64,000 nucleotides of DNA, taken from the NCBI GenBank assembly GCA_963839635.1, contig CAWIVT010000008.1, positions 303,917 to 367,916 of the forward strand, given 5' to 3'. The notes under the pieces were generated by a model. It was given only the letters and a program-made list of their open reading frames with translations, had not been told where the DNA came from and made no database searches. The translations under genes were made by a program, and so were the position numbers. Shown here in pieces: positions 7,379 to 9,139 of the stretch (its first letter is position 1; every line of letters begins with the position of its first letter). The stretch is from an uncultured Chloroflexia bacterium (GTDB lineage: Bacteria > Chloroflexota > Limnocylindria > QHBO01).

Positions 7379-8077
7379 TCAGGTAGCCTCGCGGCTGATC
7401 GCTCGGAGCATGGCCTCCGCAGCCCGGTCCTCCGGCGTCGCCACCGCCCGACGGTTGGCGATGAGGTCCTCGATCGCGGCCACCTGGACGAGGATCCCCG
7501 ACTCGATGTGCATCGGGACGGCATTGCGCCTGAGCCGATCGTAGTCGTCGCCAGCGGCCGTCTCGGTGATCGCACGCAGGTGCTTGTCCATGCCGGTCGC
7601 TGCCAGGTCCTCCCGCGCCGTCGCGAGGCGCCGCTTGGCCACCTCGGTCCCCGCATGGCAGACCACGATCTCGCGTCCGACGGTCGTCGGCGAGCCGTGT
7701 GCGGCCTCGGCGAGATCGCCGATCAGCACGAACGGAACGCCGAACCGGCGCAGCCGGCGAAGGATGTGCACCGGGCTCGTCCGGCGGTTCGTCGCGTTTC
7801 GCCCGAGCGCAAGTTTCGTCCGCTGGGGGTGGTTGAGGCGCAGACGATGGCGAATTGCCTCGAGGTCCACCGCCGGACCGATGGGTTCAACGGTGAGCTG
7901 GTGGCCCGTGGCCTCCAGGAGCGCGAGCAGTGAGGTCGTTCGGGGGATGACCGTTCCGGCCTCGATCCTCGCGACGCTCGGCTGGGGCATGCGGGCGGCC
8001 CGCGCGAGGTCGTTTTGCGTCATGCCCGCACGCCTGCGCGCCCACCGGATGCTTCGTTGGATGGCTTTGGCGTTCAC
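7379..8077 (-). CDS. XRE-family HTH transcriptional regulator with C-terminal uncharacterised (possibly nucleotidyltransferase-like) domain
   Basis: N-terminal MTQNDLARAARMPQPSVARIEAG is an HTH_XRE motif. C-terminal FGVPFVLIGDLAEAAHG block. GTG start at 8077 sits just downstream of palindromic operator-like repeats. Confidence 0.7.
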   Translation of the reverse strand: MNAKAIQRSIRWARRRAGMTQNDLARAARMPQPSVARIEAGTVIPRTTSLLALLEATGHQLTVEPIGPAVDLEAIRHRLRLNHPQRTKLALGRNATNRRTSPVHILRRLRRFGVPFVLIGDLAEAAHGSPTTVGREIVVCHAGTEVAKRRLATAREDLAATGMDKHLRAITETAAGDDYDRLRRNAVPMHIESGILVQVAAIEDLIANRRAVATPEDRAAEAMLRAISREAT

Positions 8078-8078
8078 T

Positions 8079-8124
8079 CAGCGAATATATCACTAACGAT
8101 ATAACCGCTGACAGTTTCAGACGG
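8079..8124. promoter_or_regulatory. AT-rich palindromic operator-like motif copy 1 (CAGCG-AATATATCACTAACGATATAAC-CGCTG) directly upstream of XRE gene start
   Basis: Inner inverted repeat TATATC/GATATA with a 6-nt spacer. Outer inverted repeat CAGCG/CGCTG. AT-rich island in a GC-rich genome. Confidence 0.5.
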
Positions 8125-8200
8125 CGGCGCTCCAAGGGCGCGCGAGGGCTCTACGGCGTTTGCGCCCACCGGACTGCTCGTTGATGGCCTTCGCGCCCGT

Positions 8201-8246
8201 CAGCGAATATATCACTAACGATATAACCGCTGACAGTTTCAGACGG
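8201..8246. promoter_or_regulatory. palindromic operator-like motif copy 2 (identical 46-mer)
   Basis: Exact repeat of copy 1, 122 bp away. Confidence 0.5.
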
Positions 8247-8266
8247 GCGCTCCGCCAAACGCAGCC

Positions 8267-9139
8267 TCAGCGCGACCGAGCCCCTTGAGCAACGAGCCAC
8301 TGCCGGGCGAGAACGACCGCGCCGACCAGGCTCATGGTTCCACCGACCATGAGGAGTGTCGCGAGCATCGATCCGCGCGCCGGAGGCGCCTCGTCGCCAG
8401 CCGGCTCGGCAGGTGCGAGGGTGGCGGAAGGATCGGTCTCCTCGTCGGCGGTCGGCGTCGGGGTCGGCGTCGCTGCGCCGGTGGGGGTCGCCGTCGGTGA
8501 CACGCTCGGCGCCTGCGCAGGGCTCGCGGTCTGAGTCGGCTGAGGCCCGGGCACAGGCGGACGCGGCGTCGGTGCGGAAGTCGGCCGCGGGGTGGTCGGG
8601 GCGGGCGGTCTCGGCGTCGCTGTCGGCGGAGGCGTGGGCGTCGGCGCAGCGGTCGGCTGCGGCGTCGGTGGGGGCGCGGGCGATGGCGTCGGCGTGGGCG
8701 CGGGTGGCGCGGTGACGGTGACCGGCGGCCCCAGGAGCGGCACGGGCGGCGAGGCACTGACGGCGCTGAAGATCACGTCCCAGGTGCCGGCTGGGAGCGT
8801 CGCCGTTCCCTGCCACGTGCCGTCATTCGCGCTGCCGCTCACCCTGGCGAGAGCGACGATGACGCTCCCGACCTGCGCCGAAACGGACTGGGCGGGCTGC
8901 GCGGGACTCCCCGTCGAGGCGTAGTGGACGCTGAAGGTGAAGACCGTCGCCGTCGTGCCGTTCGTCGGGGTGACACTGGCATCCGACAGGACCGATATTG
9001 CGAGCGCCGGCGCGGGCGCACTCGCCAGCACGAGCATGACCACGAGGATCGCCGCGGCGAGGATTGCGCGCGGCCGCACGACCGGAGCCCCCCGTCCGGT
9101 GTTGTCGGTCCGCTGGGGCACGAGGTGGAGGCCTGGCAT
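8267..9139 (-). CDS. Pro/Thr-rich surface protein with N-terminal signal/anchor and C-terminal transmembrane helix
   Basis: Hydrophobic N-terminus ILAAAILVVMLVLASAPAPALA. Long PTPTPSPAPPPTPQPT low-complexity region. C-terminal hydrophobic helix LATLLMVGGTMSLVGAVVLA. Confidence 0.55.
   Translation of the reverse strand: MPGLHLVPQRTDNTGRGAPVVRPRAILAAAILVVMLVLASAPAPALAISVLSDASVTPTNGTTATVFTFSVHYASTGSPAQPAQSVSAQVGSVIVALARVSGSANDGTWQGTATLPAGTWDVIFSAVSASPPVPLLGPPVTVTAPPAPTPTPSPAPPPTPQPTAAPTPTPPPTATPRPPAPTTPRPTSAPTPRPPVPGPQPTQTASPAQAPSVSPTATPTGAATPTPTPTADEETDPSATLAPAEPAGDEAPPARGSMLATLLMVGGTMSLVGAVVLARQWLVAQGARSR

Follow-up and report, generated by a model that had tools for sequence, protein, structure and literature searches.

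Why does a bacterium carry the same 47 nt twice in front of one regulatory gene, identical at every base, in a place where the surrounding sequence has drifted? The question arises in a stretch of 64,000 nt from an uncultured Chloroflexia bacterium of the Limnocylindria (contig CAWIVT010000008.1 of assembly GCA_963839635.1; the whole stretch is called the window below), where one copy of the block directly abuts the gene for an XRE-family protein and the other lies farther upstream. From comparison of this locus with its orthologues, we consider it probable that the 47-mer combines a leaderless promoter with an autoregulatory operator of the XRE protein, and that it was duplicated as a module of ~120 bp, the coding remnant of which has decayed. 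The parts of the pair, all read on the minus strand, are as follows.

7379..8077, minus strand: XRE-family gene, 232 aa, from the open reading frame list, with a GTG start at 8077
8078..8124, minus strand: proximal 47-mer (O1/P1), CCGTCTGAAACTGTCAGCGGT TATATCGTTAGTGATATA TTCGCTGA, followed directly by GTG
8125..8159, minus strand: spacer between the remnant and the proximal block, from the unit alignment
8160..8199, minus strand: decayed remnant of XRE codons 1 to ~16, from the unit alignment and the 82% repeat
8200..8246, minus strand: distal 47-mer (O2/P2), identical to the proximal one, with its core at 8208-8225

The tandem duplication at the XRE gene

A repeat search of the window placed a 47-nt direct repeat at 8078-8124 and 8200-8246, the two copies being 100% identical and spaced 122 bp apart; the initial annotation had reported an identical 46-mer (8079-8124 and 8201-8246), to which the search adds one base. 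A second direct repeat, at 8038-8059 and 8162-8183, is 82% identical and represents the 5' coding end of the XRE gene and a degenerate copy of it. When a 24-nt piece of the core was searched against the window, it matched at the two block sites only, with 0.00 matches expected from 100 dinucleotide-preserving shuffles. In a pairwise alignment of the two units of ~155 nt, the block was identical at 47 of 47 positions, while in the 75 nt downstream of it 53 of 84 columns agreed and several indels were present. The 30 nt upstream of the block, in which the 3' part of the spacer (~8125-8150) is homologous to the left flank of the distal block (8247-8275), were identical at 19 of 34 positions. This alignment agrees with the earlier description of drifted flanks and of a degenerate second XRE 5' end, the decayed copy covering ~16 codons; it lacks a start codon (CGG in place of GTG) and contains frame-shifting indels. 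Over the first ~46 downstream columns, which are clearly homologous, we counted by eye ~36 identities, roughly 78%, and at that level of identity an unbroken run of 47 has, by our arithmetic, a probability of ~1e-5. Outside the block the units have diverged too far for Tandem Repeats Finder, which did not report the pair.

A single site falsely expanded during assembly has practically no chance of explaining the pair. Beyond the general risk that attaches to metagenome-assembled genomes (MAGs) nothing further speaks for such an artefact, whereas the units differ outside the block, something that no assembler invents, and a related strain, assembled independently, has the same structure. In this strain (L001, from the European Nucleotide Archive), which matches the window at 98.9% and 96.4% identity over two segments, both copies stand in the same arrangement, which excludes an artefact as far as sequence data can. 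The tandem duplication at the XRE gene is thus confirmed as real.

The palindrome and the XRE promoter

Within the proximal block, two further features are relevant to the function of the site.

8086..8103, minus strand: proximal 18-bp core palindrome TATATC-GTTAGT-GATATA (6-6-6), putative XRE dimer site
8084..8092, minus strand: extended −10 element TGaTATATT (TG at 8092-8091, hexamer at 8089-8084), read from the sequence

In the direction of the gene, the block reads CCGTCTGAAA CTGTCAGCGGT TATATC GTTAGT GATATA TTCGCTGA and is followed by GTG. Around the proximal core, a composite palindrome extends over ~40 bp (about 8075-8114). The GTG at 8077 abuts the block directly, and no other possible start lies between it and the in-frame TGA that precedes it. 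Gene callers start the 232-aa protein at an internal ATG; the N-terminal sequence MxAxxxGRTVRWARKRAG is conserved at the protein level in 36 homologues, and the start beside the block is therefore the true one. The −10 hexamer begins at −12 and ends 6 nt short of the G of GTG, and between the two there is no space for a Shine-Dalgarno sequence. With a −10 box in this position the XRE mRNA is predicted to be leaderless, and we infer that transcription starts at the G of GTG. A sigma-70 scan found no promoter at the site and a −35 box is absent; the result of the scan was set aside, and the extended −10 box and its register were used instead.

The same arrangement recurs in other genes of these bacteria. 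Genes across the loci were predicted with our own codon-usage gene caller, and among the 332 genes obtained from all Limnocylindria loci, TANNNT hexamers peak at −12/−13 relative to the start codon (22 + 18 genes, compared with 0-2 elsewhere). Around 13% of the 332 genes look leaderless and ~29% have a Shine-Dalgarno-like motif. The peak at −12/−13 argues that leaderless transcription is, as judged from sequence, common in Limnocylindria. A TANNNT peak was also observed at −15 from the start codons of this gene set.

Orthologous loci were collected by exact look-up, by a genome scan (L050 and L067) and by a metagenome scan, in which orthologues with at least 52% identity and enough upstream DNA were counted (n = 16). 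The distance from the core to ATG or GTG is exactly 8 nt in 15 of the 16 metagenome orthologues and 11 nt in the remaining one (L076), and the same 8-nt register is found in the window, L001-L003, L050, L067 and L073-L075. All 22 aligned orthologues, which share 52-80% amino acid identity, have a core that begins at −26 and overlaps TGnTATAWT. The core is the most conserved block of these 22 upstream regions: the mean majority fraction rises from 0.45 at −70..−37 to 0.75 in the left arm and 0.90 in the core and is 0.78 at −8..−1, compared with 0.81, 0.88 and 0.63 at positions 1, 2 and 3 of the first 20 XRE codons. The −10 hexamer is TATAAT or TATATT in 12 of the orthologues and TATAAC in the other 10. 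In addition, 50 nt are identical between the window block and a copy at L003 8350, which belongs to a different species-level lineage. This identity and the peak of conservation in the upstream regions uphold the proposal, made from the window by itself, that the palindrome is under selection.

The site also changes together with the protein family. In L086 both half-sites are altered symmetrically (TATAGC...GCTATA), and homologues at ~40-50% identity carry GATAGC/GATAAC-N6-GCTATC/GTTATC in the same position, with the palindrome of this distant subfamily ending in a TATCAT −10 box just before the start. The recognition helix is nearly the same across subfamilies (PQPTIARIE vs PQPSIARIE). A site that is fixed on the promoter and drifts with the protein family points to an autoregulatory operator; this is our main argument, and on this sequence evidence the palindrome is most likely the operator through which the XRE protein would repress its own gene.

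The protein has a Cro/C1-type helix-turn-helix (HTH) domain (Pfam HTH_3 at aa 10-58, E=6.8e-10; HTH_31, E=8.8e-9), and its AlphaFold model has a pLDDT (predicted local distance difference test) of 93.8, in which the HTH domain superposes on C.Esp1396I, HipB, ClgR and DdrO in Foldseek, all of them autorepressors with palindromic sites. The C-terminal domain of ~150 aa shows a weak Foldseek resemblance to the MenT1 nucleotidyltransferase toxin (template modeling score, TM, 0.40-0.52; E~0.05); searches of Pfam, NCBIfam and PDB sequences gave no match to this part, and in our reading of the homologue alignment the nucleotidyltransferase-like domain is without the usual DxD motif. Homologues are numerous in soil metagenomes, the named ones coming from Candidatus Limnocylindria or Chloroflexota MAGs. 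The gene is a conserved, syntenic chromosomal gene that lies beside genes for BipA, a methyltransferase, trypsin-like proteases and cyclases. Near XRE, adjacent genes for an unfused HTH_31 protein (109-114 aa) and a DUF6036-like protein (165-166 aa) were seen at L073 8382-9207 and L075 5479-6289, and these pairs may be the unfused counterpart of the XRE/nucleotidyltransferase-like fusion.

In the mechanism that we propose, the extended −10 element in the right half of the block (TGaTATATT) would direct transcription from the G of GTG and give a leaderless mRNA, and the XRE protein would bind the 18-bp palindrome that overlaps the −10 box, thereby occluding and repressing its own promoter. The arms CTGTCAGCGG and CCGCTGACAG would lengthen the site to ~40 bp. 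A module of ~120 bp, made up of the left flank, the palindrome and the first ~16 codons, would have been duplicated long ago to produce the second 47-mer; its coding remnant would then have decayed, and the block would have been held identical by purifying selection on the protein-binding sequence, probably with help from gene conversion. The distal copy would be a second XRE binding site. It could also be a second promoter, in which case the transcript would have a 122-nt leader that ends in the palindrome hairpin and has no Shine-Dalgarno sequence, so that XRE would be poorly translated from it.

Dispersed copies, the distal block and other explanations

The palindrome is found far beyond the XRE promoter. 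The exact 18-mer occurs in 69 stretches of a species-representative genome collection, ~50 of them in Chloroflexota/Limnocylindria MAGs and the remaining ~19 being chance matches in AT-rich taxa, and one MAG contains 17 exact cores over four contigs. The consensus of 75 collected copies is CTGTCAGCGgt TATATCGTTAGTGATATA TCCGCTGACaG. With few exceptions the copies are intergenic; 36 lie between co-directional genes (17 forward, 19 reverse), 15 between convergent and 14 between divergent genes, with median distances of 47 nt to the nearer stop codon and 98 nt to the next start. A Pfam search of the 53 genes whose 5' end faces a copy gave a heterogeneous set with a faint hint of DNA repair (AlkZ twice, LigD, Fpg). 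A regulon theme was considered and dropped, the facing genes being functionally heterogeneous. The convergent placement of some copies and the heterogeneity of the neighbors mean that the dispersed copies cannot all be classical operators.

Orthologous intergenic regions of different species keep the palindrome in flanks that can no longer be aligned (L027/L054, L045/L057 and L008/L018), which argues for conserved protein-binding sites rather than decaying selfish repeats. In the arms of the 75 copies, Watson-Crick pairs occur at the level expected from independence at all 11 outer pairs, and G:G and C:C combinations are common. This absence of covariation indicates that the site is constrained as sequence, that is, as protein-bound double-stranded DNA, rather than as a hairpin. 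As far as can be read from the sequences, the dispersed copies thus resemble conserved protein-binding sites and not selfish repeats. No target-site duplications, and no conserved ends past 40 bp, were found around the 75 copies, and viral contigs gave no match to the family pattern with its 24 specified bases. Our literature search found no paper that pairs Limnocylindria with palindromic repeats. Two local arrangements were also observed: at L028 3340-3460 a stop codon is separated from a conserved GC-rich hairpin by a palindrome-containing segment of ~110 nt that is cleanly absent from the orthologous site of another species (L026 ~5575), and six copies occur within 8 kb at L013 650-8000, three of them within 350 bp (periods of ~118 and ~190), in a cluster resembling the bacterial interspersed mosaic element (BIME).

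The initial annotation had viewed the pair as a duplicated operator of the XRE gene. In this it was right as to the promoter/operator and the first codons, which are duplicated, but the element is not specific to this gene and belongs to the dispersed family. With a family that extends through the class, the XRE protein would probably bind many places in the genome. One extended version of this idea, which we think unlikely, is a class-wide system in which the operator of the repressor has been multiplied to dozens of conserved intergenic sites that act as protein-bound boundary elements, the XRE locus being a hot spot of module duplication and insertion. The sites, mostly ~45 nt after stop codons and in all orientations of the neighboring genes, would then serve as transcriptional roadblocks, insulators or chromosome-organizing elements instead of classical operators, and foreign genes would have been inserted between copies of the ~120-bp module, the window pair being one such event.

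The history of the distal copy can be followed in related loci. The Pro/Thr-rich gene upstream of the distal block in the window has an orthologue in L002 (XRE protein 79% identical), and there too it is followed by a palindrome copy, at 686, with the same kind of XRE remnant. Between this copy and XRE lie 9.2 kb of DNA, which contain other genes and two more copies with remnants. From the shared upstream gene and remnant it follows that the duplication is older than the divergence of the window and L002/L003 lineages. Remnants in L002 and L003 share derived bases (GCGCGAt/a) that are absent from the functional genes, and these remnants therefore descend from one another. In L074 (XRE 58% identical), three copies near XRE (3237, 5029 and 10681) have remnants that resemble the XRE codons of L074 itself, which indicates, on sequence grounds, concerted evolution or repeated local duplication of these long-form copies. 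Remnant-bearing copies occur only within ~10 kb of XRE; a search for an XRE-like 5' flank beside copies elsewhere in the genome found none. We counted 2 mismatches in 47 positions between the distal copy of the window and its orthologue in L002; so few differences, together with the 50-nt identity with L003, point to constraint. The blocks may also owe part of their identity to gene conversion with the proximal copy. Some copies near XRE have unusual structures. The remnant at L002 7269-7452 reaches approximately codon 28 of XRE, and within it the stretch coding for MTQHDLA is duplicated; the gene that follows, for a major facilitator superfamily protein, is convergent, so that this copy has no gene to drive. 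In L084, the copies upstream and downstream of XRE (763-780 and 1523-1540) share the unusual center ATCGGT in place of NNTANN and are in inverted orientation, which suggests that the flanking copies evolve in concert.

A further proposal had been that two operators at a fixed spacing would allow cooperative binding of the repressor, as at lambda OR/OL; as a selected pair, bound by XRE with looping or tetramerization, they would sharpen autoregulation. Two perfect sites 122 bp apart are indeed kept in both strains, HTH relatives such as C.Esp1396I bind composite operators as tetramers, and many orthologues have a second copy just past the gene, which makes two-site layouts around XRE common; in ten loci (L076, L077, L081, L082, L083, L084, L074, L075, L002 and L003) this copy is found just past the 3' end of the gene, 680-1360 bp from the XRE start. 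Upstream of the gene, however, orthologues at 52-80% identity have one site (L002, L003, L050, L067, L073-L075 and 15 metagenome loci), and the sole orthologue outside the window/L001 lineage with two upstream sites is L082, in which they are 76 bp apart. Other tandem pairs have periods of 118 bp (L013) and 141 bp (L011, where the pair lies between convergent genes and the end of the upstream gene is duplicated too), and with periods that differ in this way there is no common phase. In the window itself, 122 bp corresponds to 11.6 helical turns, which leaves the sites out of phase. Moreover, the orthologous distal copy of L002 is far removed from XRE, as described above, and the distal copy in the window is at the stop-codon distance typical of the family (41 nt vs the median of 47). 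Cooperative operators at a fixed spacing are thus not borne out by the single-site orthologues, the variable spacings and the helical phase, and we consider this design quite unlikely; the doubling arose by duplication in this lineage and does not reflect a paired-operator design that is conserved. As to the pair in L011 (1560-1830), the duplicated unit consists of the last ~25 nt of the upstream gene, the palindrome and ~45 nt beyond, and the two units form a mosaic of near-identical and diverged stretches, as in the window pair.

One could also envisage that a selfish or structural repeat of the REP (repetitive extragenic palindrome) or MITE (miniature inverted-repeat transposable element) kind, or an RNA hairpin or terminator, sits at the XRE promoter by chance, the pair being a by-product of replication slippage or repair that the palindrome provoked, unrelated to XRE binding. 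The dispersal of the family, including the MAG with 17 exact cores, its seemingly random gene contexts and unbiased orientation, its typical position ~47 nt past stop codons, the heterogeneous neighbors, the ~110-nt presence/absence polymorphism and the tandem duplication of a flanking gene end in L011 would all fit such an element, and the RNA can fold at −13 to −30 kcal/mol, values that are unremarkable for two of the three window copies. Yet the arms show no compensatory changes, target-site duplications and conserved ends past 40 bp are lacking, and neither a U-tract nor an Rfam family is associated with the site: the stem center is AT-rich, at most 3 T follow, an intrinsic terminator scan found none at these positions, and Rfam gave 0 matches in the window at the gathering score, permissive thresholds yielding chance-level matches to one eukaryotic element (18-23 bits vs a gathering score of 60). 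A passenger would also not be expected to keep a single-base register to the start codon in orthologues down to ~52% identity, or to be conserved at orthologous dispersed sites despite decay of the flanks; and the distant subfamily has a related palindrome at the promoter but no dispersed copies, which fits a cognate operator. We therefore regard a chance repeat as improbable. Even less probable, and in our view very unlikely, is a site of site-specific recombination or insertion similar to lox or dif; DNA segments would integrate at the XRE promoter copy and end up between direct copies bearing XRE 5' remnants, with the window pair as a bracket that has lost its insert. The layout of such a site is present, 13-6-13 with the asymmetric 6-bp center GTTAGT; copies near XRE are mostly direct repeats that bracket unrelated genes (L002 686/3871/7303/9921/11033; L074 3237/5029/9975/10681; in the window, copy 3, trypsin, Pro-rich gene, copy 2, copy 1), long-form copies carry 5' remnants of the genome's own XRE, the identical core with diverged arms recalls attL/attR, and the two L084 copies share a center. 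Against this, the gene tables of six 20-kb loci list no integrase or recombinase gene in the bracketed segments, the remnant breakpoints range from codon 12 to ~28, and centers differ within one genome (GATAGT, GGTAGT, GGTAAT and ATTAGT in L074). Dozens of sites in both orientations would destabilize the chromosome, viral contigs are without a match, and the ends of an indel at the trypsin genes of the window and L001 do not coincide with palindromes.

The operator reading has difficulties of its own. Ten of the 22 orthologues, those with TATAAC, are without the canonical final T of a −10 box, and for a single HTH dimer a site of 40 bp is long. Identity of the window blocks runs 7-10 nt past the family consensus, a pattern that gene conversion fits as well as selection does. 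Approximately 23% of the family copies lie between convergent genes, where a promoter is not expected, and the neighboring genes share no common function. A different protein could in principle bind the palindrome family, and the source organism is known only from metagenomes.

Related systems and significance

Several known systems resemble the XRE locus in part. HigA, HipB and SavR are autoregulated Cro/C1 (XRE) repressors or type II antitoxins that act on palindromes over their own promoters, and the protein described here resembles them in its HTH_3 domain and in a palindrome that overlaps the −10 box of its own promoter. The Xre-MNT toxin-antitoxin pair of Streptococcus suis represses its own promoter (PMC8406773). 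The partner in that pair has a nucleotidyltransferase fold, which recalls the weakly MenT-like domain of the Limnocylindria protein; in Xre-MNT, however, the HTH and the nucleotidyltransferase are encoded by separate genes, whereas here they are a single 232-aa fusion. The locus further differs from Xre-MNT and from antitoxins in that a 40-bp site has been multiplied across the genome and the gene is a conserved, syntenic one of the chromosome. Restriction-modification controller (C) proteins are also similar: C.Esp1396I, with its 35-bp operator, is among the closest HTH structures (TM to target 0.75, root mean square deviation 1.1-1.6 A), and C proteins have a composite symmetric operator of ~35-40 bp that overlaps their own promoter. 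The mRNAs of C proteins are leaderless or near-leaderless. C-boxes, however, consist of two adjacent dimer sites, unlike the one inner 6-6-6 palindrome with outer arms found here, and the present sites are dispersed and have no restriction-modification context.

DdrO of Deinococcus is an autoregulated XRE-family repressor with a C-terminal domain, and its ~17-bp palindrome, the radiation/desiccation response motif (RDRM), recurs upstream of a set of genes. DdrO is among the structural matches of the XRE protein. The RDRM is associated with promoters of a DNA-repair regulon, whereas the Limnocylindria palindrome occurs in all types of intergenic region beside heterogeneous neighbors, and for the comparison with DdrO no IrrE-like protease was identified. 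Like REP and BIME sequences, the family consists of imperfect intergenic palindromes of ~40 bp that are often just past stop codons, clustered and sometimes in tandem, and like the gene for a REP-associated tyrosine transposase (RAYT), the presumed cognate gene, here XRE, is flanked on both sides by copies in most lineages. The flanked gene in this case is an HTH regulator and not a Y1 transposase, as seen in the loci that were scanned; there is no GTAG-type head and no covariation of the arms, and copies are conserved at orthologous sites. Lambda OR and OL likewise are repeated operators for a Cro/C1-type protein at its own promoter. The lambda operators are adjacent (~24 bp center to center) and conserved as a set, whereas the second copy described here is lineage-specific, 122 bp away, and part of a duplicated module with a gene remnant.

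Two features of the surrounding DNA bear on the position of the copies.

8267..9139, minus strand: gene for a Pro/Thr-rich predicted membrane-anchored protein, from the open reading frame list; its 3' end marks where the distal copy lies
10387..10420, minus strand: third palindrome copy, with its core at 10395-10412, TATATCATTAGTGATATA; missed by the initial annotation

The distal core is 41 nt past the stop codon (8267-8269) of the Pro/Thr-rich gene, which is called as a 290-aa gene in L001 and the C-terminus of which is conserved in L002. A CGTCGG hexamer array (4.8 copies) at window 8443-8472 is part of the low-complexity region of this gene. The third copy, which is without an XRE remnant, lies 9 nt past the stop codon of the methyltransferase gene, and the start of the trypsin-like protease gene (10107) follows 287 nt downstream. 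The GTG at 10386, directly after this copy, was considered as a leaderless start of the protease gene and rejected; the codon model puts the start at 10107, and in L001 the frame stops after 37 codons. There are two tandem trypsin-like protease genes in L001 (6848-8735) and one in the window (9289-10386), a difference of ~1.05 kb with breakpoints away from the palindrome copies. The XRE neighborhood is unusually rich in adenylate/guanylate cyclase genes, several of them fused to AAA_16/TPR (window 4975-5982, L001-L003 and L073-L075). Positions 1-5110 of the window have a G+C content of 0.59-0.645 vs ~0.70 elsewhere and contain seven open reading frames of 146-187 aa without a Pfam match; homology to L001 ends at 5110, the left flank of L001 being unrelated, and this region may be a strain-specific island.

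That an XRE protein should repress itself through a promoter palindrome is well known from textbooks, and the tandem copy, taken by itself, is a modest, lineage-specific event. The wider lead is that, in an uncultured class of soil Chloroflexota, a long palindrome is held in single-base register on a predicted leaderless promoter across an orthologue group, and that the same palindrome flanks the regulator on both sides in most lineages and has spread to many conserved intergenic sites. The loci also provide direct sequence evidence for common leaderless transcription in Limnocylindria. If XRE binds all of these sites, this would be a bacterial case in which the site of one regulator has been propagated genome-wide, and it would supply a defined protein-DNA pair for a group that has no genetic system.

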